Under the pieces are notes generated by a model. That model had not been told where the DNA came from. It did not search any database and saw only the letters and a list, made by a program, of their open reading frames with translations. This document shows positions 8,377 through 52,149 of a stretch of DNA of 64,000 nt, in pieces. Source of the DNA: Candidatus Woesebacteria bacterium GW2011_GWC1_42_9 (GTDB lineage Bacteria > Patescibacteriota > Microgenomatia > UBA8517); contig LCET01000003.1 in NCBI GenBank assembly GCA_000995185.1, positions 6,989-70,988 on the forward strand, given 5' to 3'. The position numbers were made by a program, and so were the translations under genes. Position 1 is the first letter of the stretch. Each line of letters starts with the position of its first letter.

Positions 8377-10645
8377 GATATTACTTATAGGATTGCCCGC
8401 ATTTGAGGTTGATATGGCCGCTTGGATCGCCTGGGCGGAGAGATTAGGGGAGGGAAGCCTCGCGAATTTTTATTCTGATACAGTTTGGACGCAATACACT
8501 CCTGGATTTTTACATGCTTTGTGGATTTTTGAGAGGATTGGGATGGCGAATGAAGTCTTTATAAAACTTTTTGTTTTGTTTGGGGATATTTTCACTGCTT
8601 TCACGGTTTCATATATTGTGCGACTCACGACCAAGAAATGGGGAATGAATGCGGTAATAATATATTTACTCACTCCTCCACTCATCTTCGTTGGATCGAT
8701 CTGGGGACAAATTGACGGGTTTTTGACAATGTTAATTTTATTGGCGGTCTATTTTTTAATAGAGAAGAAAGACCTCCCCACTTCTAGCGTCTTTTGGGCC
8801 CTCTCCTTTTTAGTGAAGCCTCAGGCCTTAGCCGCCCTCCCTTTGTATTTATTAGTGATCCATAAATTTTCGCCAAAGATTGTTTTCAAGTCGGTGATTT
8901 GTAGTTTAGGAACGATATTGATAGTAAGCGCTCCTTTTTTCCCCCGCGACCCCTTATGGGGGTTCCCGAGATTAGTCCTTAAGATGAGCCAGCATTACCA
9001 CTTTGGGAGTATTTTTGCCTTTAACCTATGGGCTCTATTTGGGAAGACTTGGATCCCCGACGGCACGTATTTTATTTGGGGAATAATAATTTATCTTAGC
9101 TCGATTATAATTTTGATTGCCGCCTTTTTGAGATCAAAAAGGACTTCCTTGGAAATGTACTTATTTACAAGCCTTTGTTTTTTAAGCTTTTTTTTATTTC
9201 CCACAAGGATCCATGAGCGCTATTTGTACCCATTTTTTGCGTTCTTTTTGATTTTTATCATTATTTCCGATTTTAAGCATGGGCTTAAAATATATTTTGC
9301 TACCTCTCTTGTCTATTTAATTAATCTTTATCATCCATACGCTTACTACTCAACAAATTATTTGAGGATTGAGCCTCTCCTCTCCCTCACAGGGCACTTC
9401 ACTAAGCCAGCGGCAATATATTTTTTAGGATTGTACTTCTATCTGGTTATTTATCTGGGGAAATTTAAATTGCGGGTTCCCAAAATTGACATAAAGACAA
9501 TTCTGATATTTGCATTTCTTGCAAGGATTTTATTTTTAAATTCACCTCCGAATGAATATTTTGACGAGGTATATCATGCTTTTACTGCAAGAAGGATGCT
9601 TGCCGGAGATAGTTTAGCTTGGCACTGGAGCGGGGGTGCTCCAGAAGGGTTTGCATACGAGTGGACTCATCCCCCACTGGCCAAGCTTGGGATGGTTTCA
9701 GGAATGATTTTACTTGGGGAAAATTCTTTTGGGTGGAGATTTCCGGCGGCCCTTTTAGGGGCAGGCGCGGTTTACCTGGTTTATTTGATTGCGGAGAAAT
9801 TTTTTGGTAAGCGTGTGGCCCTATTGTCTGGAGGGGCATATGCGCTTGATGGATTAGTACTAGTCACAAGTAGGATCGGGATGAATGACGTTTATTTTTT
9901 GTTTTTTATGTTGGCTAGTTTTTATTTGTTTTTGGGCAAAAAACATTTTGTTTCGGCTCTTACCTTAGGGCTGGCGGCGGCGAGCAAATGGAGCGTATTG
10001 TGGTTTTTGCCTGTCCTTGCCCTCACCCATTTTGGACTAAAGCGAAAAATTGTTCGTGATTATGTTTGGTTTTTGATTTTGCCCCCTCTGATATATTTTG
10101 CAAGCTACACCCCCATGTTTTTTGCGGGGCTTGGACTGGCTGATTTTTGGGAGATGCAAAAGCAGATGTGGTGGTATCACACGAGACTTGTAGCGACACA
10201 CCCTTATACTTCTCCATGGTGGAGCTGGCCGATTTTACTGCGCCCGATATATCTTTATGTCGGAAACGATGGGAAGTTAGTTGAAAAGATATATGCGATG
10301 GGGAATCCGGCGATTTTTTGGGGCGGGATAATTGCCGTAATTTACTCGCTTCGAGAGGCAATCGCTTTTCGTGAGAAAAAGTTGCTAGTTATAGTCGGTA
10401 GCTATTTTATTTTCTTTGTTCCCTGGGCACTATCACCAAGAATAATGTTTTTATACCACTACCTCCCCTCAATCCCATTCATGGCAATATTAATTGGATA
10501 TGCACTTAGTAAGGATCAAAAATTGGTTTTGCCTTTTTATCTTTTTACTCTTTTACTCTTCCTATACTTTTATCCGCACTGGACTGGTGTGGCCATCCCA
10601 AAATGGCTTGATGAAACTTATTATTGGTTCCCAAGCTGGAGGTAA
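8297..10645 (+). CDS. Polytopic membrane glycosyltransferase with two GT-C-like halves; the C-terminal half is PMT/ArnT-like (GT39/GT83-type)
   Basis: More than 15 predicted TM helices. The second half carries 'NEYFDEVYHAFTARRMLAGDSLAWHW...THPPLAKL', the signature DE loop of GT39/ArnT-type enzymes. Start uncertain (overlaps the LCP 3' end; alternative Met codons at 8327 and 8351). Confidence 0.55.
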   Translation: MYLSQGAKTGMRLGLGLKMFLPTLIIRILLIGLPAFEVDMAAWIAWAERLGEGSLANFYSDTVWTQYTPGFLHALWIFERIGMANEVFIKLFVLFGDIFTAFTVSYIVRLTTKKWGMNAVIIYLLTPPLIFVGSIWGQIDGFLTMLILLAVYFLIEKKDLPTSSVFWALSFLVKPQALAALPLYLLVIHKFSPKIVFKSVICSLGTILIVSAPFFPRDPLWGFPRLVLKMSQHYHFGSIFAFNLWALFGKTWIPDGTYFIWGIIIYLSSIIILIAAFLRSKRTSLEMYLFTSLCFLSFFLFPTRIHERYLYPFFAFFLIFIIISDFKHGLKIYFATSLVYLINLYHPYAYYSTNYLRIEPLLSLTGHFTKPAAIYFLGLYFYLVIYLGKFKLRVPKIDIKTILIFAFLARILFLNSPPNEYFDEVYHAFTARRMLAGDSLAWHWSGGAPEGFAYEWTHPPLAKLGMVSGMILLGENSFGWRFPAALLGAGAVYLVYLIAEKFFGKRVALLSGGAYALDGLVLVTSRIGMNDVYFLFFMLASFYLFLGKKHFVSALTLGLAAASKWSVLWFLPVLALTHFGLKRKIVRDYVWFLILPPLIYFASYTPMFFAGLGLADFWEMQKQMWWYHTRLVATHPYTSPWWSWPILLRPIYLYVGNDGKLVEKIYAMGNPAIFWGGIIAVIYSLREAIAFREKKLLVIVGSYFIFFVPWALSPRIMFLYHYLPSIPFMAILIGYALSKDQKLVLPFYLFTLLLFLYFYPHWTGVAIPKWLDETYYWFPSWR

Positions 10646-10667
10646 CCGGTTCTGGTTGTCAGAATTT

Positions 10668-11552
10668 TTAGAGTACCAGGATTAATGCTCCGACGAAGAG
10701 AAGTATTGCGGCGCCGACTCCGACAAAGGTAGGCGTGCTTACTCCGGCATCAGGCAGGCTGGTCGATGGCGTGGCAGTTGGGGTAGCGGCCCTGGCAAGC
10801 GAGCAAGTGCAGTCGGTCTCATCATCACACTGTGGATTTCGGCAGCGATTTGAAACACAATCCATTCCGCTTGGACACTCATTGTCATTGGTGCAAGCGT
10901 CGTTGCAGACGATATCTTCATCTACTTCCGCGCAGACACAGTCGGTTTCGGCGCGGCAGTCTGGATTTCGGCAGGTATCTGAGGTACTGTCACAGACCAT
11001 CGAAGTCGGGCAGTCACTATTGTTGTCGCAAGTGTCATTACATTGAGGGTTATCCGCAGGTTGACAAGTCGTGGAATCAGGATTTTCATCAAGACGACAT
11101 CGAAGATTACCAGCATCATCGGTGTCAGAGCAAGTAAAATCAGGATCAACAGCCACACATTCGGCATTTGTCGTACAAGAGTCATTGCAACTATCAGGTA
11201 CGACCGGCGCTTGACAGTCAATCTCATCTGGGTAGGCAGTTAAGCGACAGCTATCGTCAACACCATCATCATCAGTGTCGACACAAGTGTGGTTGGCCTC
11301 AGTGCAGTCCGTGTCATCGGTACAGGGATCATTGCATCCAGCTGTCTCTGCGGTAGTGGTGAAGGTGAGATCACAAGTATTGGTGAGAGTCGGAGCCGCG
11401 GCGCCTGGGATCGATTCAGGGGCAGATGGTGCTACCCTCTGGGACCTTAGGGAATAAAGCCTTACGGCCGTGAAGATTGCTATCCCCCCAAGAACCAAGG
11501 TGGAAACTAAAATTATTACGGTTACTTTATTTCTTTTTATAAAATCTAACAT
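10668..11552 (-). CDS. Cysteine-rich modular surface protein (N-terminal signal anchor, about 5 Cys-rich repeats, C-terminal LPDAG plus hydrophobic tail)
   Basis: Repeats have the pattern C-N-D-x-C-x5-C-x6-C-x6-C-R-N-P and are D/T/N-rich. The C-terminus is '...SLPDAGVSTPTFVGVGAAILLFVGALILVL'. Locally elevated GC. Confidence 0.6.
   Translation of the reverse strand: MLDFIKRNKVTVIILVSTLVLGGIAIFTAVRLYSLRSQRVAPSAPESIPGAAAPTLTNTCDLTFTTTAETAGCNDPCTDDTDCTEANHTCVDTDDDGVDDSCRLTAYPDEIDCQAPVVPDSCNDSCTTNAECVAVDPDFTCSDTDDAGNLRCRLDENPDSTTCQPADNPQCNDTCDNNSDCPTSMVCDSTSDTCRNPDCRAETDCVCAEVDEDIVCNDACTNDNECPSGMDCVSNRCRNPQCDDETDCTCSLARAATPTATPSTSLPDAGVSTPTFVGVGAAILLFVGALILVL
10760..11420 (-). repeat. Intragenic tandem repeats encoding about 5 cysteine-rich modules of 36-45 aa
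   Basis: Repeated CxDxC...CRNPxC blocks are visible in the translation of 10668..11552. Confidence 0.5.
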
Positions 11553-11564
11553 TTAATTTAATAG

Positions 11565-13193
11565 TTAAAACCAACCAATAGTCGCGTCTGTGTGATGTAA
11601 TTCAGCTGAAATAGTAAACGTTGTCGTCCCGGCGGGGATAGTGTATTCATCGTAAAATTCTTGAGTGTTTGGCCGCTTTTGGGTGACCGCAGTTCGCACG
11701 ATGCCGTTAATTGAAAATCTCGCGCGATCTAGTGTGCCGGAGGTGGTTGTCCCATTAGCTGTAAAGCGGACAATGTCCCCCTCTCTTAGTTCGGTTAAAT
11801 CGGCAGCGGTCAGAAGGACCCAATTGTTATCAAAGGCTTTAATGTTTAGGCATTGAGCGGCTATGGTGGTGTCGATAGCCCCTGAGGGAGTAGGTGTCGC
11901 ATCCCCAGATGGGGTTGGAGTGGCTTCACCGCACACACTCTGACCATTTTGGGCAATGGCAAGATTTGACTGTTGTATTCCATCAGAATTGACTACATCA
12001 ACTTGTTGTGAACCGCAGAAGCTGCTATCAACGCACTCTTGGCCACTTGTAGAAACGAGCTGACCGCCAGTGGCTGCTGTGCATCTCCCATCCTGAAGGA
12101 AAGTACTACATTGCCACTTTTGGACAGAGAATCCATTAGTGGTATCTGCGCTACAACAGCTTCCGGCGCAAGCATTTGTCCCTGCCGCCGGCGGCTCCCT
12201 GTCGGCAACCGCTACGCACCTAGGTGGGTAGTTTGGGTTAGTCCCAGGCCTGGGACAGTCTGCAAGTGACAAAACACAAGCATTGCGACTGTAACATCTA
12301 ACTGGGTACCCAGTACCTACGCAATTAGTATCATTGTAGTTATACCATGAACAGGCTAATCCAGATCCACAGCTTTGGATTGTCCATGTTCCATTTGTCT
12401 CCATCGTCCCACAAGTTTGCCCTGAGCCGAGCAACCCCGAAGGAACAGGGGTGGGAGCTGTGGTCTGGCTTGAGCAACTTACATCAATTTGGCAACCTGC
12501 ATCTGTTATATTTCCTGTGGCTGAGTCACATTGGTATGCATGTCTTTCTCCAGAGGGACAACCATTTTGCCCGCATCCGCTGGAGTAATACTGCCCATTG
12601 GGGCAGTTATCTACGGGAGTGGTTGGGCAACTGCTAGGATTAAATGCACCACAGTTAGTTGCATAACAAGGACTTTGTCCACTACAAGTGGAAGGATCGA
12701 CTTCTACGCATTGGCAGATGTACCCAGTGTTTTGTCCTCCTTCTGTTTGACACGAAGGATAAGTGCCTCCACAGCTAGAATCCGTACCTGTGTAAGCCCC
12801 TTGTTGGAAGAGTTGTTGTTGCTGAACGAGGGCTAGCCCTGCCCCCACGGCTGCAACCAAAACCAATACCCCCAGTATCCCACCAACTACTTTTTTATTT
12901 AGTTTTCTTCCTCCGCCTCCCCCGGAAACGGTAAATGGCTCTGGTTCGCTTGTTTCTGTGGTCGGGCTCGTATCTCCAGAGACCGGAGCAGACCCGCCAA
13001 ACGGCGAGCTATCGGGCGCTGGCGCCTCTCCGGTTGATAGCGGTGGCGGCGGGACAGTTGACATATCAGTCGGAGTATTCATTGGCGGCGGCGGCGGAGG
13101 AGTAGTCATCCCTGGGGTATCACCAGCAAGACCACTTGCCGATGAGGCGGGTGCAGTTCCTTGGGTTTCGTCTGTTTTGGCAGTAGGATCCAT
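11565..13193 (-). CDS. Type II membrane-anchored cysteine-rich extracellular protein with Pro-rich N-terminal tail
   Basis: N-terminus 'PPPPPPPMNTP...', single TM 'VVGGILGVLVLVAAVGAGLALV', then about 40 Cys in a G/S/T/Q-rich ectodomain. Confidence 0.55.
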   Translation of the reverse strand: MDPTAKTDETQGTAPASSASGLAGDTPGMTTPPPPPPMNTPTDMSTVPPPPLSTGEAPAPDSSPFGGSAPVSGDTSPTTETSEPEPFTVSGGGGGRKLNKKVVGGILGVLVLVAAVGAGLALVQQQQLFQQGAYTGTDSSCGGTYPSCQTEGGQNTGYICQCVEVDPSTCSGQSPCYATNCGAFNPSSCPTTPVDNCPNGQYYSSGCGQNGCPSGERHAYQCDSATGNITDAGCQIDVSCSSQTTAPTPVPSGLLGSGQTCGTMETNGTWTIQSCGSGLACSWYNYNDTNCVGTGYPVRCYSRNACVLSLADCPRPGTNPNYPPRCVAVADREPPAAGTNACAGSCCSADTTNGFSVQKWQCSTFLQDGRCTAATGGQLVSTSGQECVDSSFCGSQQVDVVNSDGIQQSNLAIAQNGQSVCGEATPTPSGDATPTPSGAIDTTIAAQCLNIKAFDNNWVLLTAADLTELREGDIVRFTANGTTTSGTLDRARFSINGIVRTAVTQKRPNTQEFYDEYTIPAGTTTFTISAELHHTDATIGWF

Positions 13194-13196
13194 AAT

Positions 13197-14549
13197 CTAA
13201 TTTGTGGCCTTGGCCGAAACAAAAACTCCAGCCAAAATCAAGCCTAATCCCATCGTAGCCAACAAAAGTGTTGGCGTCAAGTTCCCCGCTACAGGAGTGC
13301 CCGCGCCGGTTGCGGGGAGGCTCACTCGAGGCGTCGCTGATGGGGTTGCTGTTGCTTTGGTCTTGGGGGTTGCCGAAGGTGTGGCCTTTGGTGTCGCCGA
13401 CGGGGTGGATTCAAAGGCTGGCCCACTTGCGGCGCTAACGATGAAGTTCTTGGTAATATTGTGCAATATCCCGGCCGCATCGCGCCAGGAAAGTGTAACT
13501 GTGTGCTCTCCCTCTTCTAAGTCATCAGGCGGGGTCCACTCCCAGTTGCCGTTTGCATCGACAGTGACCTTATCCGTCTGAGGATCTGACCGGACAGTGA
13601 TAGTGATGATCTCACCAACTGGGCCTTCACCAAAAAACTCAGGGGTAGTGGTGGTGATTTCTTCATCTTCTTCTATGCTTTCGATTGTTACTGTGCCGCT
13701 TGCTGTTGCATCAAGTTCTTCATCGTCCCCCGTGTCAAACCCTGACGTTGTTGCGTCAAGGTCTTCGTCTTCTGGAAGAGTAAGCTCCGCGCTGGTCAAG
13801 CCATTTTCTCCGGAAATTTCTGTGTTTTTAAAATTGTATGTTTGCCCAAGAGTGATATTTGGGGTCGGGTTTGCAGTTTGCGGGTAGGCTTGGGCGGTAG
13901 CTACCCCACGGCTTGCCGCTTGGACAAAAATCTCGATCAAGGTAGCACTTGAATTTATCGTGGCGTGCGCAGATAAGTCAGGGGTTCTGGCGGGGGAAAG
14001 GGGGATAAGCCACCCCCCAGAGTTTGAAGTGGTGGTAGAGAGAGGGGAAAAACTGCCCGAATTAATAAAGACCAGCACCCCGATAGCCGGCTCTCCAGTT
14101 GCCGTAAGGACGGTGCCGGAAAGCATTTGCGTGGTGGTAGTTTGAGACAGGATCGGGCCGGTGGCTTGCTGCCAAGGAATCCCATTGTTGTCATAATTTT
14201 CTCCATCGGAGTTTATTTTAAAGAAATTGACGGCTCCCGGATCTAGCCCGTCGATGGTAATAGAGTGAATACCCTTGGGGGTAGTATCGCTTTCATACTC
14301 AGTATTGTCTAAGCTTGATTCGCTTTCGCCCCAGACGATGTAGCCAATAGTGTCTCGATCAGTAGTCCAGTTGACTGCAAAAGAGGCGCTCGTGATATTT
14401 GTGATCCTGACGTCTTTTGGCGCTGATTCAGGGCTTGCTCCAAGTTTGAAGACTTGGGCGCGCTGGACCAAAAACACACCCACTCCTAACCCGAGCAACA
14501 AAATTATTATTCCGATAATAGTGGGGATCCCACCAACTGCTTTCTTCAT
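13197..14549 (-). CDS. Sortase-anchored (LPATG) surface protein with a fibronectin-III-like domain and acidic and PT-rich repeats
   Basis: N-terminal signal anchor. 'VRITNITSASFAVNWTT...YIVWGE' is FN3-like. 'TPSATPKATPSATPKTKATATPSATP' is a linker. C-terminus is 'LPATG' plus a hydrophobic segment plus K, a canonical sortase sorting signal. Confidence 0.7.
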   Translation of the reverse strand: MKKAVGGIPTIIGIIILLLGLGVGVFLVQRAQVFKLGASPESAPKDVRITNITSASFAVNWTTDRDTIGYIVWGESESSLDNTEYESDTTPKGIHSITIDGLDPGAVNFFKINSDGENYDNNGIPWQQATGPILSQTTTTQMLSGTVLTATGEPAIGVLVFINSGSFSPLSTTTSNSGGWLIPLSPARTPDLSAHATINSSATLIEIFVQAASRGVATAQAYPQTANPTPNITLGQTYNFKNTEISGENGLTSAELTLPEDEDLDATTSGFDTGDDEELDATASGTVTIESIEEDEEITTTTPEFFGEGPVGEIITITVRSDPQTDKVTVDANGNWEWTPPDDLEEGEHTVTLSWRDAAGILHNITKNFIVSAASGPAFESTPSATPKATPSATPKTKATATPSATPRVSLPATGAGTPVAGNLTPTLLLATMGLGLILAGVFVSAKATN

Positions 14550-27373: not shown

Positions 27374-30300
27374 ATGAAAGTAATTAAAAAGAGTATTAAT
27401 CTCGGAGATCGAGAATTAACCCTCACTATCGGAAAATTAGCTGAACAAGCCCAAGGGGCAGTACTCGCTCAATATGGCGAGACTGTTGTGTTGGCCACAG
27501 TTACTTCTTCTCGTCTCAAGGAAGATTTGGGGTATTTCCCTCTTACCGTAGAATATCAAGAGAGGCTGTATGCTGGTGGGAGAATAAAAGGTAGCCGGTG
27601 GGTAAAGCGGGACGGTAGACCTGCCGATGACCATATTCTTTCTGCACGTCTCATTGATAGATCCATCCGCCCTCTTTTTCCGAAAGAATATGATAATGAA
27701 GTCCAAGTTGTTGTAACTGTCCTTTCTGTGGACTTGAAGAATGACCCGGTAGCAATTGCCCCTGTTGCCGTTTCCGCCGCGCTTGCTCTCTCCCCAATTC
27801 CCTGGCTTGGACCGATAGGATCGGTAACCGTTGGGATGAGTGATGGTAAGTTTGTTGCTAACCCTCAAAATGGCGATCTTAAAAATTCAAAAATGGAATT
27901 GGTTGTTTCATCCACCGACAAAGCCATTGTGATGATTGAAGCTGGTGCAAATGAAGCCAGTGAAGAAGATATTTTGGGAGGTGTCGAGTTTGCATATAAA
28001 GAGTCCAAAAAGATAATTAAATTTATTAGTGACTTAGTCAAGGAGGCGGGGTCTAAAAAGGAAGCAATTGAGAAGGAGAAAGCTGACCCTAAGCTAGAAT
28101 CTAAAGTCAAAAAGATCGTTTCAAAGGAGTTGGAAAGCTTAGCCAAAAAAATTGCCGCTAAGGAAGCAAGCTTTGGGGATCTTGATGTGTTGAAAGCTTC
28201 CATGGTGGACCATGTGGGGGAAGAGAATTTGGAAAAAGCAGTTGAACTAATCGAGGATCTCTTTAAAGAGGAAGTTAGATCGATTATTTTGGGCGGGAGC
28301 AGGCCTGACGGTAGAAAATACGAAGAAATAAGGAAGCTCAGTTCCGAAGTGAGTGTGTTGCCAAGGACCCACGGGTCAGCGATTTTTAAGCGCGGGTCTA
28401 CACAGGCGCTTACAGTCACCACATTAGGCGCGCCGTCACTAGGGCAACTAATTGAATCGGCCGAAGGGGAGGAAGAAAAGCGCTATATTCATCACTATTC
28501 TATGCCGCCATATGCCACAGGGGAGACGGGAAGGATTGGGTCACCCGGGAGGCGGGAGATTGGGCATGGTGCACTGGCCGAGCGAGCCTTGATTCCAGTA
28601 ATTCCTGGCAATGAAGAGTTTCCATACGCGATTTATTTGGTTAGTGAGATTATGAGTTCAAACGGATCAAGTTCAATGGCGTCGGTCTGCGGCTCGACAA
28701 TGTCTTTGATGGACGCAGGTGTTCCCATCAAAAGGCCAGTTTCGGGGATTGCAATGGGACTTGTGATAGACGCGAAGAAGATCGCAATTTTGTCCGATAT
28801 TGCTGGGATTGAGGACTACTACGGCGATATGGATTTTAAAGTTGCAGGATCAGTAAATGGCATTACCGCGCTTCAGCTTGATGTTAAAACTTTGTCACTT
28901 ACCCCAGACATATTGAAAAAGGCCCTTTCTCAGGCAAAAGCAGGACGCGCTGAGATATTAAAGTCTATGCTTGCGACCATTGATAAAGCCCGGGAAAAAG
29001 TCTCGGAGCATGCACCGAAAATAAAATCAACGAAGATTGATCCAAGCAAAATTGGTGAGGTCATTGGTCCGGGGGGAAAGACTATTAAAAATATTATCGC
29101 GACTACCGGGGCTGATGTTGACGTTGAAGATGATGGAACTGTCAGTGTTTCTGGGATAGATGGCGAGAAGGTAAACGAGGCACTCGCTTGGGTAGAGAAT
29201 CTGGTAAAAGAAGTTGAACCAGGTGAAATTTATGAGGGAACAGTTAAGAGAATAGAATCTTTTGGCGCTTTTGTCGCAGTGCTTCCTGGTAAAGAAGGGC
29301 TTGTGCATGTCTCTGATATGTCTGAAGGATTTGTGGAAGATGCGAATAAGGTAGTTAAATTAGGCGACAAAGTGCAGGTTAGAGTTAAGGAGATTGATAA
29401 CCTGGGGAGGATTAATTTATCAATGATTTTGGACCCAAGCAAAGAGAAAAAAAGGCCCCCTCAGAGAGATTTCCGCAAGGGCGGTCAAAGGAGAAGTTTT
29501 AATCGTCCCAGAGTGGGAAGGTCTGGCTCTGGACCGCATTTCCCGACAAGTAGATTAGTCTCGCAAAGGAGAGAAAAAGATAAAGGCTCACTGAAAATAA
29601 AAGGCGGCTCGGTGTTTAATATCAAAAACTTGGACGTCGAGGTGCCTCTCGGCCGGCTGGTTGCGGTAACCGGCGTATCGGGCTCGGGCAAGTCGTCGTT
29701 CCTCTACGAAATTTTGCACGAAAAGACTTTTTTGCCGGAACTAGATCGGATAGGCCGTTATGTTGACTGGATAGTTGCTCTTCCTTGGGAAAAGCGGACT
29801 AAAGACATCTTAGATATTCAAAAAGCTAAAGAAACAATGGATAAAAATCATTATGGATTGCTGGCACTAAAAGATCGAGTGATTGAGTATATGTCAGTCA
29901 TGATACTTAAATCTCAAAGTCGGGAAATTGCCCGTGCGCCGATATTGTGTTTTGTGGGATTAGTGGGGACTGGCAAAACAACAATTGCGGCGTCTATCGC
30001 GGAAGCATTGGGAAGAAAATTTGCAAGGATCCCATTTGGAGGGATGGGAGATCCGTTGGACCTTCGTGGGCAATCAAAAGCACATGCAGAAGCTGAACCA
30101 GGAAAGGTCATTAAAGCCCTTCGCAGCGCCGAGAGCAAAAACCCGGTGATCCTTTTGGATGAAATTGATCGAGTGACTGACGAAGGCAGAGCTTCGATAA
30201 TGGGTGTATTAGTCGAGCTTTTAGATCCCAGGCAAAACCAAGCTTTTGTGGACCATTATATCGATTATCCTTTTGATTTGTCTGAAGCTATTTTTATCGC

Positions 30301-30640
30301 GACTGCTAACAATACGACCGGGATAGCTACAGCAGTGATGGATAGGCTTGAGCCGATCACCATGCCAAGCTATACAGACCAAGAGAAAATTGAGATTGGA
30401 CGAAAATATTTATTACCCCGGGCATTATTGGAATCAGGAATCCCCAATGGAGCAATAGTTTTCGATGATGGTGTTTGGCCGCAAATTGTTCGCCCCTTGG
30501 GGTTTGATGCCGGGATCAGGACTTTGGAAAGGACTATTAAAGGTGTAGTGAGTAAAGTTGCGAGAATGGTTGTGGAAGGAAAGACCCAAACAATTACAAT
30601 TAATGGAGAAAATGTCAAAGAATATATGCCTCAATGGTAA
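27374..30640 (+). CDS. pnp: Polynucleotide phosphorylase (PNPase) continuing in frame into a UvrA-like P-loop fragment and a protease-less Lon-like AAA+ module
   Basis: Residues 1 to about 700 form a complete PNPase: two RNase PH domains, KH ('IGEVIGPGGKTIKNI'), S1, and a basic tail. An approximately 45-aa segment follows, 'NIKNLDVEVPLGRLVAVTGVSGSGKSSF', resembling the start of the second ABC domain of UvrA. The final approximately 340 aa, 'YVDWIVALPWEKR...HYGL...ILCFVGLVGTGKTT...ILLDEIDR...LLDPRQNQAFVDHY...FIATAN', are collinear with the end of the Lon N domain and its AAA+ domain. No Lon protease domain. Confidence 0.75.
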   Translation: MKVIKKSINLGDRELTLTIGKLAEQAQGAVLAQYGETVVLATVTSSRLKEDLGYFPLTVEYQERLYAGGRIKGSRWVKRDGRPADDHILSARLIDRSIRPLFPKEYDNEVQVVVTVLSVDLKNDPVAIAPVAVSAALALSPIPWLGPIGSVTVGMSDGKFVANPQNGDLKNSKMELVVSSTDKAIVMIEAGANEASEEDILGGVEFAYKESKKIIKFISDLVKEAGSKKEAIEKEKADPKLESKVKKIVSKELESLAKKIAAKEASFGDLDVLKASMVDHVGEENLEKAVELIEDLFKEEVRSIILGGSRPDGRKYEEIRKLSSEVSVLPRTHGSAIFKRGSTQALTVTTLGAPSLGQLIESAEGEEEKRYIHHYSMPPYATGETGRIGSPGRREIGHGALAERALIPVIPGNEEFPYAIYLVSEIMSSNGSSSMASVCGSTMSLMDAGVPIKRPVSGIAMGLVIDAKKIAILSDIAGIEDYYGDMDFKVAGSVNGITALQLDVKTLSLTPDILKKALSQAKAGRAEILKSMLATIDKAREKVSEHAPKIKSTKIDPSKIGEVIGPGGKTIKNIIATTGADVDVEDDGTVSVSGIDGEKVNEALAWVENLVKEVEPGEIYEGTVKRIESFGAFVAVLPGKEGLVHVSDMSEGFVEDANKVVKLGDKVQVRVKEIDNLGRINLSMILDPSKEKKRPPQRDFRKGGQRRSFNRPRVGRSGSGPHFPTSRLVSQRREKDKGSLKIKGGSVFNIKNLDVEVPLGRLVAVTGVSGSGKSSFLYEILHEKTFLPELDRIGRYVDWIVALPWEKRTKDILDIQKAKETMDKNHYGLLALKDRVIEYMSVMILKSQSREIARAPILCFVGLVGTGKTTIAASIAEALGRKFARIPFGGMGDPLDLRGQSKAHAEAEPGKVIKALRSAESKNPVILLDEIDRVTDEGRASIMGVLVELLDPRQNQAFVDHYIDYPFDLSEAIFIATANNTTGIATAVMDRLEPITMPSYTDQEKIEIGRKYLLPRALLESGIPNGAIVFDDGVWPQIVRPLGFDAGIRTLERTIKGVVSKVARMVVEGKTQTITINGENVKEYMPQW

Positions 30641-32629: not shown

Positions 32630-35269
32630 ATGGGAAGGAAGCGCAGAAAGAAGGGCTCCAGAAAGTCATCAAGAGGATTTGGGATATCCCTTAAGAGGGA
32701 AACAATTTTTTCTGTGATCCAGATTGGTTTTTTTGCTCTTTCGGGACTTGTGGTGATCTCTTTTTCGAGAAGAGGGAGTGCCTTGGTCCGCTTAAATGAT
32801 TTATTGGTTTTATACTTTGCATGGTCAAGCATTTTTCTTCCATTTATTTTTCTCTCTATCGGATTTATGATTTCAAGATTGAGATTCCCCTTGGGGCAAG
32901 CCAACGTCGTCATTGGAATGCTTTTGTTTTTTGTTTCCTTTTCTACTCTCACGCGTGCTGGGATAGTAGGGCGCACCAGTTGGGAGGGGGTAGAGGTTTT
33001 AGTCACCCCTGCCGGGGCTTTTTTGGTGCTTTTGGGGACAAGCATTGCTGGATTAATTGTTCTTTTTAATACTTCCTTTGATCGGGTTTTAATTATTACT
33101 GGGGCAATTCTTCGGCAGATACGCTACTATCTGATCGGAGATAAAAGTTTTAAGACTCCAGGATTTTCTGGAAAACGGGGTTTAAAGGTCCTTGGGGGCA
33201 ATCAATCATCTCAGGGTAACCAAAAACCGATCTCCGATAAAGGCAATACGGAAGCGAAAGAAAGCCTTGCTCCTAAACTAGTCAGTAATATGCCGGGGGA
33301 TGACAAAGTTTGGAAATATCCTTCCCTAGACTTATTGGAAGGATCTCACCAAGGAAAAGCTGATCGAGGAGATATTAAAAGTAATGCGGCAGTTATTGAG
33401 CAGACCTTGGAAAGTTTTGGGATTACCGCGAGAGTGGTTGAGGTAAACCTGGGCCCTGCGGTAACTCAATACGCTCTCGAAGTAGCCTTGGGGACAAAAT
33501 TATCAAAAATTACGGCTCTTGAGCGCGACCTTGCGCTTGCTCTAGCCGCGCCAAATGGCTCAATTAGGATTGAAGCGCCCATTCCAGGGAGAAGTTTGGT
33601 CGGGATAGAACTCCCTAACAAGACTCCAGAGTTTGTACCTTTAAAGACGATGCTTTCATCAGAAGTGATGGAAAAGACTCAGTCTAAATTGGCGGTGTCC
33701 TTGGGCCTGGATGTGGCTGGGAATCCGGTGATTGCTGATTTGGCTGACATGCCGCATATCTTAATTGCGGGACAGACTGGCTCTGGGAAGAGTGTGTGTA
33801 TAAATGCATTTCTTAATACCCTTCTTTTTAGGGCTTCTCCGTCGGAAATAAAATTGATATTAGTTGATCCTAAGCGAGTGGAGTTAACAGGATACAACGA
33901 CATTCCGCATTTGTTATCCCCTGTGATCGTTGAGCCTGAGAAGGTCGTCTCTGCCTTGAGGTGGATACTTTCTGAAATGGATCGAAGATATAAGCTTTTT
34001 GCTCAAGCAGGAGCAAGAAACATCGCCGGGTATAATGAAATGAGTGGATTTCAAGCTCTTCCCTATATCATCCTTGTTATTGACGAGTTGGCGGATGTTA
34101 TGCTTTTTTCCCCAGCCGAGGTGGAGGACTCTATCACCAGAATTGCACAAATGAGCCGAGCCACAGGAATTCATATGATTTTGGCTACACAGCGCCCTTC
34201 AGTCGATGTCATCACGGGGTTAATCAAAGCAAATATTCCCTGTAGAATTGCGTTTGCCGTTTCCTCACAAGTTGATTCGCGGGTAATCCTTGATTCACAA
34301 GGAGCAGAGAAATTGTTAGGCCGAGGGGATATGCTTTACCTATCTCCATCTCAAGCAAAGGCCATGAGAGTGCAGGGAGCGTACGTCTCGGACAAAGAAA
34401 TTAATGCACTCATTTCGTTTATGAGAAACCTGGGAATTAATCCTCAATACACAGAAGAAGTGGTTGCAATGGCAAAACCGGGAAGTATGTCCGTTCCTGG
34501 GATTAATGGAGATACGGATGATAAATTTAGGGAGGCAGTGGAGCTTGTTTGTCAGTTTGATCGGGCATCGGCAAGTTTACTACAGAGAAGGTTGTCGGTC
34601 GGATATGCTCGGGCGGCCAGGATTCTTGATCAATTAGAGTCGGCCGGAGTGGTCGGGGGGAATTATCTTAAGAAGTCTCGTCTGTCAAAAAAATTATCTT
34701 TTGAGGATATTGAACGAGAGACAAGAATTAAAAAAGAATTCATCAAGTCGATTGAATCTGAAGATTGGGTGAACCTTCCGGAATTTACAGTGGTTGTAGG
34801 ATTTGTAAAAAACTTGGCCAGTTTCCTTAAAATAAACAGAACCAGAGCGTTGGCGTTATTAAGAAGGGATTACCCTCCGAGAAAACAGGAATTAGTCATC
34901 GAGCCAATCGCAATGAAAGTGTTTAAGTGGTCTCCGCGTCTAACTTTCTTAATAGGAATTGTGTTAATTGGCCTTACAGTGGTCGGGTATCTTGGTTTCC
35001 AATACAAGGGTTTTATTTCCCCCCCATTTTTGGAAGTAAAAACTCCGTATGAAAATCAAGATGTTTACGAACCAAGTCTATTGGTTACTGGTAGAACTGA
35101 CGCCGGGGCGACAGTGAGAGTAAATAACCAACCAGCTTTAATTGATGAAAGTGGTGAGTTTGTGTCTGAAATTGAGATTTCTCCCGACACAAATTCTGTT
35201 GAAATTAAGGCAATTTCCCGCTCTGGAAAAGAAACTATGGTTCGTCGTACAATTAACCCCAAGTTTTAA
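32630..35269 (+). CDS. ftsK: DNA translocase FtsK/SpoIIIE with a C-terminal RodZ-like HTH-TM-periplasmic extension
   Basis: N-terminal TMs, a motor domain ('ILIAGQTGSGKSV', 'ILVIDELAD') and a gamma domain ('LLQRRLSVGYARAARILDQLE'). About 200 extra aa follow: 'LSFEDIERETRIKKEFIKSIESEDWVNLP...VVGFVKNLASFL', a RodZ-type HTH, then a TM helix and a beta-rich domain. Confidence 0.8.
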   Translation: MGRKRRKKGSRKSSRGFGISLKRETIFSVIQIGFFALSGLVVISFSRRGSALVRLNDLLVLYFAWSSIFLPFIFLSIGFMISRLRFPLGQANVVIGMLLFFVSFSTLTRAGIVGRTSWEGVEVLVTPAGAFLVLLGTSIAGLIVLFNTSFDRVLIITGAILRQIRYYLIGDKSFKTPGFSGKRGLKVLGGNQSSQGNQKPISDKGNTEAKESLAPKLVSNMPGDDKVWKYPSLDLLEGSHQGKADRGDIKSNAAVIEQTLESFGITARVVEVNLGPAVTQYALEVALGTKLSKITALERDLALALAAPNGSIRIEAPIPGRSLVGIELPNKTPEFVPLKTMLSSEVMEKTQSKLAVSLGLDVAGNPVIADLADMPHILIAGQTGSGKSVCINAFLNTLLFRASPSEIKLILVDPKRVELTGYNDIPHLLSPVIVEPEKVVSALRWILSEMDRRYKLFAQAGARNIAGYNEMSGFQALPYIILVIDELADVMLFSPAEVEDSITRIAQMSRATGIHMILATQRPSVDVITGLIKANIPCRIAFAVSSQVDSRVILDSQGAEKLLGRGDMLYLSPSQAKAMRVQGAYVSDKEINALISFMRNLGINPQYTEEVVAMAKPGSMSVPGINGDTDDKFREAVELVCQFDRASASLLQRRLSVGYARAARILDQLESAGVVGGNYLKKSRLSKKLSFEDIERETRIKKEFIKSIESEDWVNLPEFTVVVGFVKNLASFLKINRTRALALLRRDYPPRKQELVIEPIAMKVFKWSPRLTFLIGIVLIGLTVVGYLGFQYKGFISPPFLEVKTPYENQDVYEPSLLVTGRTDAGATVRVNNQPALIDESGEFVSEIEISPDTNSVEIKAISRSGKETMVRRTINPKF

Positions 35270-42058: not shown

Positions 42059-45000
42059 TACTTCCGAGATGGCCCAAACAAAAAGACGTAATTTTGGAAA
42101 AATAGAAAAGAAACTGCCGGAGCTGGATCTATCTCTTGTCCAAAGAGAGTCGTGGCAGTGGTTTTTAACGGAGGGAATTGCTGAAGAAATATCCCAAATT
42201 ACCCCGATAGACGATTTTACAGGAAAGAATTGGCAGTTGATCTTAGGAGAGCATGTGCTTGAAAAACCAAAGATTACTCCGGGAAGAGCTATTGAAAAAG
42301 GGCTTACTTTTGCGGCTCCATTTAAAATTAAGACCACTTTAATAAATAAAAGAACAGGAAAGAGCATTGAACAAGAAGTCTTTTTTGGCAACCTTCCTCA
42401 AATGACTTCCGTTGGAACCTTCATCATTAATGGAATAGAGCGCGTAGTAATTAATCAGTTGGTTCGTTCTCCTGGAATTTATTTCTCAGGGGAGACGGAT
42501 CGTTCTAGTGGAAGGATGCTGCATCAGGCAGAAATAAGGCCTCTTCATGGATCATGGCTTGAATTTGAGGTAAGTAAAAATGATGTTATTTCAGCAAGAA
42601 TTGATAAAAGGAGAAAAATGCCGGCGACTATTTTGCTTCGTGCAATGGGTCTTGAGTTTGATAAAGATATTAAAGATGCCTTTTCTAAGGTGGATAGTGA
42701 TCCTGATCACTCCTACATCTTAAAGACAATTGAGAAAGATCAAACAAAAAATCGAGATGAGGCACTGCTGGAAATTTATAGGAAAATGCGACCGGGGGAG
42801 CCGGCAGTTTTGGAAAATGCGCAGAATCTTTTTGATACTTTGTTCCTAAACTTTAGGCGTTATAATCTTGGAAAAGTAGGGCGCTATAAAATTAATAAAA
42901 GACTGGGGATTAGCGTTCCGAACGATAAGCAGAATTGGGTATTAACCAAGGAAGATGTTGTTGCAACGGTAGCTTACCTTATTGGTCTCCAGAATGAGGA
43001 AGGAAGGACTGATGATATTGATCATCTTTCAAATAGGCGTTTGAGGAGAGTGGGGGAGCTAGTCGCAACGCATGCTTTTAGGGCAGGGCTTTTGAGACTA
43101 GAAAGATCGGTAAAGGAAAAAATGAGCCTTATTTCCCCCGACGATATCCCACAGCCGCAGTCATTAATTAACGCTAGGCCCTTGATCGTAGCAATAAATG
43201 AATTTTTCCGATCAAATCAACTCTCCACAATATTAGATAACACTAACCCATTGTCAGAAATAGATAATTTGAGAAGGGTATCTGTCCTTGGCCCGGGTGG
43301 GATCAACCGAGAGAGGGCATCGTTTTCTATTCGTGACATTAACTCATCCCAATATGGAAGGATAGATCCCGTTCGGTCTCCGGAGGGACCAAATATTGGA
43401 TTAGTGACATATCTGGCGCTTTATGCACAGGTAAATGAATATGGATTTCTTGAGGCTCCTTACCGGGTCGTCAGGAAGGAAAAAGTGGGGGGTATTGAGA
43501 GGGCCAGAGTTACAGACGAAATGGTATATCTTGCCGCCGATGACGAAGAAGAGCAGTACATCACCCATAGCGGGATAAATATTGGCAAGACGGGATTAAT
43601 CGAAGATGAACGCGTTCCTTATCGTTATAAAGGTGCTTTTTTGGAAGGCTCTTCTAATCTGATTACATTAATAGATCTCACTCCGCGACAGGTTTTCGGT
43701 GCGAGTGCTGCTTTAATTCCATTTTTGTCACATGACGAGGGAAATCGTGCCCTGATGGGCTCAAATATGCAGTGCCAAGCAGTGCCTCTGGTGCATCCCG
43801 CTTCTCCGATAGTTGGTACTGGCATGGAGGGCGTGATAGCTGAAGCAATGGGCGGGGTGATTCGGAGTGGACACAGAGGAAAAGTGACCTATGTGGATGC
43901 TCAAAGGATAGAGGTCTCGCTCGATAAAAAAGTGGAGGCAATAGACGACCCTAATATGGAATTATCTGATAATCATAAAACAATTATTTATCATTTGTCC
44001 AAATTTAAAAAGACCGCCGCTTCGACTTCTTATAATCAAAAGGCGCGGGTGCAGGTTGGTCAGAAAGTTAACAAGGGTGATCTTCTTGCTGATGGACCAA
44101 GTTCAGATCAAGGAGAGTTGGCTTTGGGCCAAAACCTTGTGATTGCTTATACAAATTACGAAGGATATGGTTTTGAGGATGCGATACTAATTTCTGACCG
44201 TTTGGTAAAAGATGATCTTCTAAAATCGATCCATATTAAGGAATATCAAGCAGATTTGGTGGAAACCAAGCTTGGGCCGGAGGAGCTGACCCGAGATATT
44301 CCAAATGTTGCCGAGACGGAGCTTGCCAACCTAGCAGAGGATGGTATTGTCGTCATAGGTGCAGAAGTGAGTCCGAATGATATTTTGGTCGGGAAAATAG
44401 CCCCTAAAGGAGAAACAGAACTTACTAGTGAAGAAAGGCTTCTTCGGGCAATTTTTGGAGAGAAGGCGCGAGAGGTACGGGATACTTCGCTTCGTGTTCC
44501 TCATGGCGAAGGAGGAATTGTGGTTGATGTGCAAATTCTTGACAAAGAAAAAGGAGATGAGCTTGGCCCGGGAGTAATTAAAAGCATTATTGTTAAAGTG
44601 GCTCAGACGAGGAAGGTAAGCGTAGGAGACAAATTGGCTGGGCGCCATGGAAATAAGGGTGTGATTGCAAAAATCATGTCAACTTCCGATATGCCATATC
44701 TTGAGGATGGCACACCGGTTGATATTATCATTTCCCCTCTTTCTGTCTTAGCGAGGATGAATTTGGGCCAACTTTTGGAAAGCTACCTTGGCTGGGCACT
44801 CTATAACAAGGGAGAAAAGGGACAAATTCCAGTTTTTGACCAGATCAGCGAAGAAGTGATTATCAAGGAGCTTCAAAGCGTTGGGATGAGCGAGACTGGG
44901 AAAACGAGACTTTATGATGGACGGACCAGTGAACCGCTTAAGGAAGATACGGTTGTAGGAATTGGCTACATCATGAAATTAAGACACATGATTGAAGATA

Positions 45001-48000
45001 AAACCCACGCGAGATCGACTGGTCCTTATTCGCTTGTTACCCAGCAACCTCTTGGTGGGAAGGCCCAGATGGGGGGTCAGCGCCTTGGAGAGATGGAGGT
45101 CTGGGCACTAGAAGCGCATCGGGCGGCCTATACTTTGCAGGAAATGCTGACCTTGAAATCCGACGACATTGTCGGACGAGCACAAGCATTTGGGGCGATA
45201 GTGAAAGGTGAGCCTATCCCCGAGGCCAAAGTCCCGGAGAGTTTTAAGGTTCTTATTCGTGAGCTTAATTCGCTAGGGTTAGCAATAAATGTCGAGGGGA
45301 TTTTAAAAGAAGAGACTGAAGAAAAGATTGAAAATTCCACGGATCCACTGGTTAGCATGAGAGGCCTAAAGGAAATTAATGGTCTACAAATAAAATTAGC
45401 ATCTCCTGAGGAAATACGCGCCTGGTCAAGGGGTGAGATCCTCAAGCCCGAGACAATAAATTATAGAACCCTTAAGCCGGAAAAAGACGGCCTTTTTGAC
45501 GAAAGGATTTTTGGTCCGATCAAAGACTGGGAATGCTATTGCGGTAAGTATCGAAGGATCCGTTATAAGGGAGTGGTTTGCGATAAATGCGGAGTGGAAG
45601 TGGCCGAGTCGAGGGTCCGACGAGAGAGAATGGGGCACATTAGCTTGGCAGCCCCGGTTGCTCATGTTTGGTACTTTAAGGGAGCACCTTCAAAAATTTC
45701 TGTCCTTTTAGACCTTCCTCCAAGAGCGGTGGAGCAGGTAGTGTATTTTGCTCGCTATATGGTGATGAGCGTTGACGACAAGGGCCGAAAAGAAGCCTTA
45801 AAGTCGCTTAAGAGTGTTTGTGAAGAAAAACTTTTGGAGGTAAAAGAGATTTATCAGGAAAAGAAGAAAATTGTTAAAGAAGATGCGGTTGTTAGAAAAG
45901 AAAAAACTCGCGGTCGAATAAAAGATAAAGAGCAACAGGCGCTTGCCATAAGTGAAATTGATTTAGACGAAAGGAAAAAAATACAGACCTTGGCAGAGGA
46001 AGAAAGATCTACCCAGGAAAAGACTAAGGAGTTATTTAATCGGCTTGAAGATTTGGTAAAAGGGGTATTCCAGTTTGGGTTTCTTACTGAAGATGAGTAC
46101 GACAAGCTTGATTTCTATGGAGTGTCTGGGTTTGTTGATGTAAAGATGGGAGCTGAGGCGATAATGGAAGCGTTGAATAATATTGATCTCAATAAGCTTG
46201 CCAAAAATATCCGTGAAGAGATTAAGATTTTAAAGAAGGGCAAGAATAGCCAGAGATATGTAAAGCTAACCAAGAGGTTGAAAATTGTGGATGGGATGAG
46301 GCTTGCCAAAGTTGATCCTGTTTGGATGATAATTAAGGTACTCCCGGTTCTTCCCCCTGATTTAAGGCCGATGGTTCAGTTATCTGGAGGAAGATTTGCA
46401 ACAAGCGACTTAAATGATCTTTATCGCAGGGTTATCAATCGAAATAATCGCTTAAAGCATTTGATCAATTTGGGTGCTCCGGAGATTATTTTGAGGAATG
46501 AGAAGAGGATGCTTCAAGAGTCGGTGGATTCTTTGATTGATGCTTCTCAAAGAAAGGCAACCAGGAGAGGCAGAGGGAGGCAACCATTAAGATCTCTTTC
46601 AGATATGCTTAAAGGAAAACAGGGAAGATTCCGACAAAATTTGCTTGGGAAGCGGGTGGATTATTCTGGAAGGTCAGTAATAGTAGTGGGACCTGAATTA
46701 AAGCTAACTCAGTGCGGGCTTCCAAAAGAAATGGCATTGGAGATGTTTAAGCCTTTTGTTCTTCGAGAAATGATCGTGAGAGGAATAGCTCCGAATGTGA
46801 AGTCGGCAAAGAATATGCTTGAAAAACGTCCGGCTGGGGTCTTTGATATTTTGGAAGAGATTACTAAAAATCACCCCGTTTTGCTAAATCGCGCGCCAAC
46901 ATTACATAAGCTGGGCATTCAAGCCTTCTTCCCTGTATTGATTGAAGGAAATGCAATAAGGATTCACCCCGCGGTGTGTAAGGGCTTTAATGCTGACTTT
47001 GATGGAGATCAGATGGCGGTCCACGTTCCCCTGTCAGAGAAAGCCAAAAAGGAGGCAGTGGAATTGATGATGTCTGACAAAAATCTTTTGAGGCCTGCAG
47101 ATGGATCTCCAATGTCGGCTCCTGCTTCCAAAGAAATTGCCCTTGGTGTTTATTATCTGACAAGTGTGGACACAAGAATAAAGCCAAACAGTGCCGTTTT
47201 TTCTAATCCAGAAGAAGCAATCTTTGTGTATCAAATAGGGAAGATTGAATTAAGACAAATGATAACTGTGCGGGTCGGCACAGGCCTCTTGGAGACCACG
47301 GTAGGAAGATTGATCTTCAACGAGGTATTGCCGGATGCTTTGGGTTATGTTAACGAGAATATAAGTTCTGGGGTGATTACAAATCTGGTTACGAGAGCCT
47401 TCAATGAGATCGAACACGAGAGGGTAATTAAGATGATTGATAAGATTAAGGATCTGGGGTTTGTTGGGGGGACTTTGTCGGGCTTGTCATTTGGAATATC
47501 TGATGCGGCGATATTGCCTGAAAAGTCAAAAATTATAGCAAAGGCAAACAAAAGGGCCACAGAAATAGAGGAGAATTTTTCTCAAGGGTTAATTACCGCC
47601 AATGAAAAGAAAAGACTAGTAGAATCAGTGTGGATTGAGACCACTGAAGAGATCGCCGATAAAACTTGGGAGATAGTTGACCCTAATAGTTCAGTGAGAC
47701 TTGTAATTGACGCCAAAGTTGGACGTACTTCTAGAGAGCAAATAAAGCAATTGGCTGGGATGAGAGGTCTTGTAGTCGATCCTCTCGGAGAAATTGTGGA
47801 GTTACCTATAAAGTCAAATTTCAGAGAGGGGCTTTCCGTGTTTGAATATGTTAATTCTTCGAGAGGGTCAAGAAAGGGATTATCTGACACTGCTCTTAAA
47901 ACGGCAGATGCTGGGTATTTGACACGAAGGCTCGTAGATGTTGCTCACGATTTGATAATTAGGAATGAAGATTGTGACACCAAAGAGGCTTTACCAATAT

Positions 48001-48140
48001 TTAGAAGTACCAGACCGAAGGCGTTTGAAAGCCGCATTATGGGTAGGTTCGCAGGAGAAGATGTTAAAGATGATATTCGGGTGATTGTAGCTAAAAATGA
48101 GCTTATTTGGATCTCTCTGATAAGGAGCCAGTCGAAATAG
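42054..48140 (+). CDS. rpoB-rpoC: In-frame fusion of RNA polymerase beta (RpoB) and the N-terminal 900 or so aa of beta' (RpoC)
   Basis: RpoB ('[14 protein letters not shown]...' to '...LAINVEGIL') runs through a 30-aa linker directly into RpoC ('[41 protein letters not shown]...[21 protein letters not shown]...[14 protein letters not shown]'). The likely start is the ATG at about 42069. Confidence 0.85.
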
Positions 48141-48925: not shown

Positions 48926-48932
48926 ACATATT

Positions 48933-49388: not shown

Positions 49389-49397
49389 ATTAATTAT

Positions 49398-52108: not shown

Positions 52109-52111
52109 CTA

Positions 52112-52140: not shown

Positions 52141-52149
52141 ACTAGCGTT

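Follow-up and report, generated by a model that had tools for sequence, protein, structure and literature searches.

A 136-nt fragment of a foreign uvrA gene, probably a technical chimera, fuses pnp to a Lon-like AAA+ gene in a single Woesebacteria contig

The GC-rich stretch noticed earlier between the polynucleotide phosphorylase (PNPase) and Lon-like segments of the Woesebacteria window (i.e. the whole 64-kb stretch of DNA analysed here) is a 136-nt piece of another bacterium's uvrA gene, which stands in place of 156 native nt carried by all other public copies of the strain. The patch is probably a technical chimera of read length, resulting from a local assembly or gap-closure error, and not a feature of a living genome, while the 1088-aa 'PNPase-UvrA-Lon' product (KKS77998.1) is most likely not a real protein. 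The locus comprises the following features:

27374–29588, plus strand: native pnp (polynucleotide phosphorylase), codons 1–738, with two RNase_PH domains, KH and S1 according to Pfam, 100% identical to P0001 (KKQ95941/KKS97423).
29565–29588, plus strand: left junction anchor, AAAGGAGAGAAAAAGA[T/C]AAAGGCT, 24 nt, encoding RREKDKG, defined by the donor and native alignments.
29589–29724, plus strand: foreign uvrA fragment, codons 739–784 (46 residues), including the Walker A motif of the second ATP-binding domain, defined by the replacement relative to the native sequence and by the donor match.
29631–29710, plus strand: GC/GC3 island, the GC-rich core of the patch (65% GC, GC3 0.81–0.85).
29725–30640, plus strand: what is left of the Lon-like AAA+ gene, beginning with base 3 of codon 41 and running through the stop, with AAA and Lon_lid according to Pfam and 100% identity to contig L001.

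The original prediction described an island of about 60% GC with a preference for G/C-ending codons, and both properties were borne out by the measurements. The GC content of 65% at 29631–29710 compares with the mean of 42.7% for the window (SD 7.2%, 80-nt windows), and values of at least 65% are reached in just 0.4% of all 80-nt windows and in 3 of the 800 non-overlapping ones. GC3 of the patch is 0.81–0.85 (27 codons) against 0.41 for the fused ORF as a whole, and the remaining ORFs of the window show the mean of 0.40, the SD of 0.10 and the maximum of 0.70 (n=15,604 windows of 27 codons), which gives the patch a z-score of 4.4. A log-likelihood ratio that sets the synonymous codon usage of the donor against that of the host has its peak at nt 29627 and amounts to +26 bits when summed over the 46 patch codons. 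The 80-nt limits originally assigned to the island turned out to be too narrow, as the foreign segment spans 29589–29724 (136 nt), and composition alone misses its opening 41 nt because they are AT-rich (37% GC); the sequence quoted for the island starts at 29630, one position before the start given for it (29631).

In the native arrangement, pnp (741 codons, encoding a 741-aa protein with the C-terminus ...EKDKGFRR*) is separated by a 23-nt spacer from the Lon-like AAA+ gene (345 aa; L001 8250–9287, i.e. P0241, KKQ95940/KKS97422), which is a gene of its own, and next comes rnj, which overlaps the AAA+ stop codon by 7 nt. The junction of PNPase and Lon domains assumed earlier is therefore not native: there are two separate genes that were fused by the patch. 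The domain labels themselves were right, since the upstream part is PNPase, the patch contains a UvrA-type Walker A motif (GVSGSGKSS), and the downstream part is a Lon AAA+ module. The 156 replaced nt run from the last 3 codons and the stop of pnp across the 23-nt spacer into the AAA+ gene, of which they include the first ~41 (40 2/3) codons. The DNA outside the patch is 100% identical to contigs L001–L004 up to position 29588 and to L001 (from 8372 onward) after the patch, and the window in general is 100.000% identical to the native-type contigs over 1565–62108, three small sites excepted. The sister metagenome-assembled genomes (MAGs) GW2011_GWB1_43_14 and GW2011_GWA1_39_11b (707-kb contigs) have pnp unfused next to the AAA+ gene of 345 aa, and the native arrangement is present also in the JGI, ENA and Logan assemblies (8–15 contigs in total, from four sources), while the 1088-aa fused ORF is on record from a single NCBI contig of 111,984 nt. 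The reverse possibility, namely that the native version is the artefact, was rejected, since this version is seen in many assemblies from different pipelines, and in it the pnp stop is intact, a spacer is present, and the N-terminus of the AAA+ protein can be aligned to the pre-AAA helix of Lon.

Searches for further copies of the patch gave a consistent picture. An exact 72-mer from the patch matched the donor uvrA alone across 241 M JGI metagenome contigs, a collection in which native-type contigs of the Woesebacteria strain are present. Neither this 72-mer nor a 60-mer from the native pnp matched the GTDB representative genomes, among which the species of this strain has no representative. 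No protein cluster representatives bridging both patch junctions were found, the 174-aa junction peptide, used as a query, returned only partial Lon-like or UvrA-like matches (at most 53% of the query), and the assembly and protein collections searched contain no second occurrence of the patch allele in the Woesebacteria context. As the patch is absent from genomes that are 100% identical in its flanks, it is not ancestral. An ancestral and functional three-domain protein (PNPase, UvrA-like P-loop and Lon ATPase), in which the patch would have been kept by selection for the P-loop, is refuted by these sister genomes and retains a practically negligible probability: it is favoured by the uninterrupted ORF and by nothing else, while the genomes of the identical strain possess two genes, set apart by stop codon, spacer and start codon, the best 120 PNPase homologues are all unfused and do not exceed 800 aa, and the patch shares 99% DNA identity with a gene from a CPR lineage that differs at class level. 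Moreover, the 46-aa patch, which in the 1088-aa ORF yields a sub-threshold Pfam match to ABC_tran (residues 751–783), corresponds just to the Walker A strand-loop-helix of an ABC ATPase, with no Walker B, signature motif or zinc modules.

The patch is identical at 135 of its 136 nt to uvrA in six contigs (L005, L011–L015) of a Paceibacteria-like CPR bacterium with ~54% GC, whose closest named relatives are Kaiserbacteria and Adlerbacteria (82–84% protein identity). This match, together with the absence of the patch from the sister genomes, bears out the proposal of a different source with higher GC. The donor uvrA is located in a uvrB-uvrA-uvrC operon, and the GC3 of the patch is ordinary for this gene (donor mean 0.68; the island window ranks 203 of 819). 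The sole difference between patch and donor is a synonymous A instead of G at 29590, with A present in none of the six donor contigs. Donor and recipient occur together in ERZ27254728 (donor L012, recipient L002) and in SRR1658462 (donor L014, recipient L009), a run of groundwater-filtrate reads from PRJNA268031. A source in the genome's own uvrA was ruled out, as the window contains no uvrA and the donor match decides the source. The 962-aa ORF at 453–3341 of the window encodes a UvrD/PD-(D/E)XK helicase and not UvrA.

The two ends of the patch differ in character. The left anchor is common to the native pnp and the donor uvrA, with 23 of 24 nt identical and in the same reading frame, and its exact 16-mer is the single longest exact word that the donor locus (14 kb) has in common with the 64-kb window in its reconstructed native form, which points to a similarity-driven join. 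A random or deliberate splice of unrelated sequence was therefore rejected, the more so as the sequence is that of the deposited GenBank contig. At the right junction, between CACGAAAA and GACTTTTTT, the alignments reveal no overlap or microhomology of donor and recipient, and the join is collinear with the native locus. Both junctions are in frame, and the ORF is open through 1088 codons.

Comparison with the native strain identified two other differences on the contig:

34657–34658, no strand: 110 nt missing, as a result of which FtsK (704 aa) continues in frame into the XRE/HTH_25 gene (207 aa) that lies downstream.
48106–48107, no strand: 112 nt missing inside the fused rpoBC gene, with a frameshift.

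The first of these deletions results in a fusion ORF at 32630–35269 (879 aa), whose product, KKS78001.1, is known from this contig alone. The second interrupts rpoBC, which encodes 2322 aa in the sister genomes and is represented in the window by ORFs of 2023 aa and 272 aa, and removes the conserved motif RSPLTC..GVCTKCYG of the beta' subunit. A search for direct repeats or microhomology at these deletions revealed at most 3 nt (GGG) at 34657/34658 and none at 48106/48107. Two further defects of ~110 nt, one of which puts a frameshift into an essential gene, would speak for a contig prone to errors. However, the rpoBC deletion may recur independently in a Logan contig from another run, SRR29904083, whose gene calls, the level at which the two were compared, are spaced identically; if it does, the defect is in real molecules and the argument from an error-prone contig becomes weaker.

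Among the causes named in the original prediction without a choice between them (recent insertion, recombination or chimeric assembly), insertion does not hold, because 136 nt replace 156 nt, while the chimeric, local assembly error is favoured. In a low-coverage sample, the assembler or an automated re-assembly of gaps and errors would have faced a hole of ~110–160 nt at this locus; the left contig would have been extended into a donor read via the common word, and the next contig would then have been abutted where the donor read ended. The 136–143 nt specific to the donor would be compatible with one read of 150 nt, which is the read length of a sister project (PMC4736985), and the private A at 29590 suggests a consensus built from one or very few reads, in which such a base is expected. 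The long ORF would require only modest luck, given that both genes read the RREKDKG word in one and the same frame and that a right join made at random preserves the frame in one case out of three; nevertheless, in-frame junctions are also expected of a biological fusion that survived, which counts against the technical origin. Read support for the patch is presumably absent. According to the description of the Brown et al. 2015 pipeline in PMC5079060, zero-coverage regions of these genomes are re-assembled automatically with Velvet, and in IDBA-UD assemblies local errors without any read support are called prominent, with 13 of them in one 1.13-Mb CPR genome (PMC7111523). The precise software step behind the chimera is a guess, because a pure de Bruijn path needs a common k-mer at both ends, whereas here there is none on the right and 16 nt of exact identity on the left.

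The main alternative to the assembly error is a genuine and very recent short-patch illegitimate recombination with uvrA DNA of the co-resident CPR bacterium, free or taken up, which we consider possible but unlikely. The foreign DNA would have annealed at the 24-nt near-identical word, with its other end joined illegitimately ~150 nt downstream, a course of events to which we assign a low probability, and the outcome, rather doubtful as well, would be that in one sample a part of the population carries PNPase fused in frame to the AAA+ protein. The co-occurrence of donor and recipient in the same samples, the similarity anchor at the left end (23/24 nt), the collinear replacement by a segment of similar length (136 vs 156 nt) and the ORF open over 1088 codons all agree with this scenario, as does the rpoBC rearrangement of the same contig, which may recur in an independent run. 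However, the patch occurs in one contig only and is missing from every independent re-assembly as well as from the two sister MAGs, which represent the identical strain, the right junction exhibits no microhomology, and the fusion deprives the AAA+ gene of its ribosome-binding region and of 41 N-terminal codons. There are zero SNPs relative to the native strain across ~60 kb, yet three rearrangements of 110–156 nt, one of them disrupting rpoC, a combination that fits a read-scale technical error better than mutation. With zero differences from the native contigs outside the three sites, a biological event would have to be extremely recent. We see a minor chance that it was a recombination days to weeks old, caught in situ among several illegitimate rearrangements of ~110–150 nt segregating in the population; if true, it would directly demonstrate that CPR lineages separated at class level exchange short patches of DNA in an aquifer.

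A technical origin could also lie upstream of the assembly, in a chimeric molecule that arose by template switching or ligation during library preparation and was then assembled correctly where coverage was low. Such a molecule would explain the private base at 29590 and the recovery of a junction by a second assembler from similar data, as with the rpoBC deletion, and template switching prefers short common words such as that at the left junction. Two switches would be needed, however, the second of them back to the same locus ~150 nt downstream and without homology, which is improbable for PCR chimeras, and we regard this explanation as very improbable, well behind recombination. The local assembly or gap-closure error is the explanation we prefer.

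The significance of these results is chiefly one of database hygiene. KKS77998.1, annotated as a 1088-aa 'polyribonucleotide nucleotidyltransferase', most likely represents a nonexistent protein, and the same applies to the 879-aa FtsK (KKS78001.1) and to the split RpoBC (KKS78009.1/KKS78010.1). Such entries could seed false 'Rosetta-stone' inferences of domain fusion, tying together PNPase, UvrA and Lon. The case also demonstrates that a GC3 scan can locate a chimera between genomes inside a MAG down to the length of one read, and that the comparison of sister assemblies decides the origin of such a patch.

With respect to known proteins, the patch is a literal fragment of uvrA holding the Walker A motif of the C-terminal ATP-binding domain, but only 46 of the ~845 residues of UvrA are present, and the ABC signature, Walker B, the zinc modules and the UvrB-binding domain are not among them; the ORF in the window is not a UvrA, and the presence of a functional UvrA domain is refuted. 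Along its full length, the native 345-aa product can be aligned to solved LonA structures in the region of their AAA+ module and lid (E = 5e-75 to 3m6a, residues 4–342), with recognisable Walker A, Walker B and sensor motifs. It differs from LonA in that the S16 protease domain with its Ser-Lys dyad and the N-terminal domain are missing, the ORF stops after the lid, and His-Ala stands where B. subtilis Lon has the Tyr-Val of its pore loop; 'Lon protease', the name given in GenBank, overstates what the gene encodes.

Among known phenomena, genomic islands recognised by deviating GC content and codon usage resemble the patch in the compositional anomaly, the absence from sister genomes and the identifiable foreign donor, but they extend over kilobases, whereas the patch has 136 nt, lacks any complete gene, mobility gene, tRNA or repeat, and stands in place of native sequence, with two genes interrupted by it. 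Illegitimate recombination shares with it the heterologous replacement of similar length, the short imperfect anchor at one end and the clustered differences. The anchors described for the homology-facilitated type are as a rule much longer, and the short-patch type exhibits microhomology at both ends and shorter patches, while the right end of the patch described here has no microhomology. Both homology-facilitated and short-patch double illegitimate recombination have reportedly been described in naturally transformable bacteria, by de Vries and Wackernagel in 2002 and by Harms and colleagues in 2016. Local assembly errors and chimeras in MAGs differ in that their class is defined by absent read support, while the case presented here is known from assembled contigs alone, and its right junction has no common k-mer. 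In other respects the patch resembles the errors of this class (Chen et al. 2020, Genome Res, PMC7111523): it is likewise a short, read-scale consensus unlike every other assembly of the same population, acts at the level of genes, leaves a wrong protein in the databases, has a co-occurring organism as its source, and comes from a pipeline of the IDBA-UD era with Velvet re-assembly.

The compositional island lies in a long ORF flanked by infB, rpsO, rnj and ftsK, with top homologues in Candidatus Woesebacteria, a CPR/Patescibacteria lineage. Its 1088-aa product (GenBank KKS77998.1) is recorded from a single contig (111,984 nt), and its top protein match is a native 741-aa PNPase (100% identity, 68% of the ORF covered). 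Public contigs with this PNPase carry two genes at the locus, pnp and a separate AAA/Lon_lid gene:

27374-30640, + strand: 1088-codon ORF holding the uvrA-derived patch
ORF residues 1-684: complete polynucleotide phosphorylase (Pfam RNase_PH x2, KH, S1)
ORF residues 751-783: ABC_tran/P-loop (Pfam, sub-threshold)
ORF residues 858-1072: Lon-type AAA+ module with Lon_lid (Pfam)
Native pnp: 741 aa, C-terminus ...EKDKGFRR followed by the stop
Native AAA/Lon_lid gene: 345 aa, separate, after a 23-nt spacer downstream of pnp

Against native-type contigs of the same strain, blastn shows 100.000% identity as far as window position 29588 and then from 29725 onward; the 136 window nt between these points stand where the native contigs have 156, which sets the true bounds of the foreign segment at 29589-29724. 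Through this exchange pnp loses its final three codons and its stop, the spacer disappears, and the AAA+ gene lacks its GTG start together with its first 40 2/3 codons; a single open frame runs across both genes. The genes are unfused on the 707-kb contigs of the sister metagenome-assembled genomes (MAGs) GW2011_GWB1_43_14 and GW2011_GWA1_39_11b (pnp, KKQ95941/KKS97423; 'Lon protease', KKQ95940/KKS97422), as well as in re-assemblies from JGI, ENA and Logan. The sister genomes, together with a fragment size of 46 residues, refute both an ancestral protein of three domains and a functional UvrA domain.

A search with an exact 72-mer of the patch gave no match among GTDB representative genomes and matched one JGI metagenome contig, L005 (Ga0209542_10009051), within a bona fide uvrA, where it spans the Walker A motif of the second ATP-binding domain. 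L005 agrees with window 29565-29724 at 158 of 160 positions, and five more donor contigs (L011-L015), in which the gene belongs to a uvrB-uvrA-uvrC operon, are identical to L005 across the patch stretch. The nearest named UvrA proteins (82–85% identity) come from Kaiserbacteria, Adlerbacteria and Paceibacterota, which makes the donor another CPR bacterium, of a class-level lineage different from that of the recipient. The foreign, higher-GC source proposed in the original prediction is proved by this donor uvrA (contig L005, 54% GC).

The island itself is real: at 29631-29710 the GC content is 65%, against a window mean of 42.7%, a level reached by 0.4% of all 80-nt windows. GC3 in 27-codon windows tops out at 0.85 at nt 29627 (mean of the 1088-codon ORF, 0.41), while 15,604 such windows from the other ORFs have a mean of 0.40, SD of 0.10 and maximum of 0.70, giving the island z = 4.4. 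The log-likelihood ratio of donor versus host codons peaks exactly on the patch and totals +26 bits. In the donor uvrA (GC3 0.68) the patch is unremarkable, ranking 203rd among 819 windows by GC3; the island is simply normal donor composition. The original prediction was one base off in its coordinates and, at 'about 60%', slightly underestimated the GC content; it also delimited the GC-rich core alone, because the first 41 nt of the patch are just 37% GC.

The left junction falls on AAAGGAGAGAAAAAGA[T/C]AAAGGCT, common to native pnp and donor uvrA and read in the identical frame as RREKDKG in both. A 16-mer of it is the longest exact word that the native 64-kb window, as reconstructed, has in common with the donor locus (14 kb), and therefore the join is similarity-driven, not random. 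At the right junction, CACGAAAA/GACTTTTTT, no homology between donor and recipient was found. The patch has one private base, A at 29590 (synonymous TCA) versus G in 6/6 donor contigs. Donor and recipient contigs occur together in ERZ27254728 (L012 and L002) and in SRR1658462 (L014 and L009), the latter belonging to PRJNA268031, the groundwater-filtrate reads underlying the PRJNA273161 CPR genomes. Genuine illegitimate recombination over a short patch, very recent and between two CPR bacteria living together, would agree with a similarity anchor at one end and a collinear, in-frame replacement; nonetheless it is unlikely, given that the other end lacks microhomology and that the patch has no second sighting in a Woesebacteria context among JGI contigs (exact 72-mer), product records or junction-peptide matches. 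The donor-specific stretch measures 136-143 nt, and reads of the sister Rifle project, at 150 nt, are slightly longer (PMC4736985).

Between 1565 and 62108 the window is 100% identical to native-type contigs, apart from the patch and two other sites:

34657/34658 (ORF 32630-35269): loss of 110 nt that every other copy of the strain has
48106/48107 (ORFs 42069-48140 and 48107-48925): loss of 112 nt within fused rpoBC, equal to 8053-8164 of the native contig L006

The first loss joins FtsK (704 aa) in frame to a downstream XRE/HTH_25 gene (207 aa), yielding an 879-aa fusion (KKS78001.1) recorded from this contig only. The second shifts the reading frame and takes out the conserved beta' motif RSPLTC..GVCTKCYG; the 2023-aa product is confined to this contig, and 7 other contigs, those of both sister MAGs among them, carry intact rpoBC (2322 aa). 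Zero SNPs in 60 kb alongside three rearrangements of 110-156 nt make an odd spectrum for mutation, but are what read-scale errors of local assembly or gap closure should look like. This reading is backed by the pipeline papers: the pipeline behind these genomes finds zero-coverage regions and automatically re-assembles them with Velvet from reads within 1 kb (PMC5079060), and local errors without any supporting read are described as a prominent feature of IDBA-UD assemblies, 13 of them in one 1.13-Mb CPR genome (PMC7111523). Among the causes originally proposed (recent insertion, recombination or chimeric assembly), the last is best supported. The patch is probably a technical in-silico chimera, a chimeric molecule at the library level being very improbable, and most likely not a real biological feature. 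The value of the finding lies in flagging several GenBank proteins that probably do not exist.

A 1165-nt Logan contig from another run, SRR29904083, is also on record with the 272-aa product that starts just past the junction of the rpoBC deletion. Its upstream ORF stops 33 nt past the 272-aa start, as in the window and unlike in the JGI contig L007, which has a different deletion, of 40 nt, at this site (L007 3890/3891). Judging from the spacing of the gene calls, the Logan contig could share the 48106/48107 junction; if it does, the deletion exists in sequenced molecules and the argument from an error-prone contig is weaker. In all, this essential gene shows three alleles at the site. Over the 3.9 kb on the upstream side of the rpoC site (L007 36-3890, window 44226-48080), L007 and the window disagree at 14 positions, and over the 7 kb downstream (L007 3989-10959, window 48107-55077) at 0; L007 is a strain mosaic or strain-level chimera with its boundary at the same site.

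Elsewhere, window 10001-14500, identical in sister contigs, has a GC content of 0.47-0.53 versus about 0.42, and contains three ORFs with no Pfam match or faint fn3/Big_13 matches:

10668-11552, minus strand
11565-13193, minus strand
13197-14549, minus strand

GC3 in these ORFs shows no rise (0.41-0.51), which places the shift in codon positions 1-2, i.e. in amino-acid composition. From 18000 to 64000 the + strand carries almost every gene, with a steadily positive GC skew (0.15-0.30); this fits a long leading-strand stretch of one replichore.

The native AAA+ gene (L001 8250-9287; its remainder is window 29725-30640) encodes a stand-alone 345-aa Lon-type module between pnp and rnj, the latter overlapping its stop codon. 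This neighbor of two RNases, named 'Lon protease' in GenBank, has neither a protease domain nor an N-domain, and His-Ala aligns with the pore-loop Tyr-Val of B. subtilis Lon. Native L006 (2015-8983; window 42069-48925 with the missing 112 nt restored) joins rpoB and rpoC in a single uninterrupted ORF of 2322 aa with Rpb2 and Rpb1 Pfam domains (UniRef 'Multifunctional fusion protein'). This beta-beta' fusion is natural, like those known from Helicobacter and Wolbachia.
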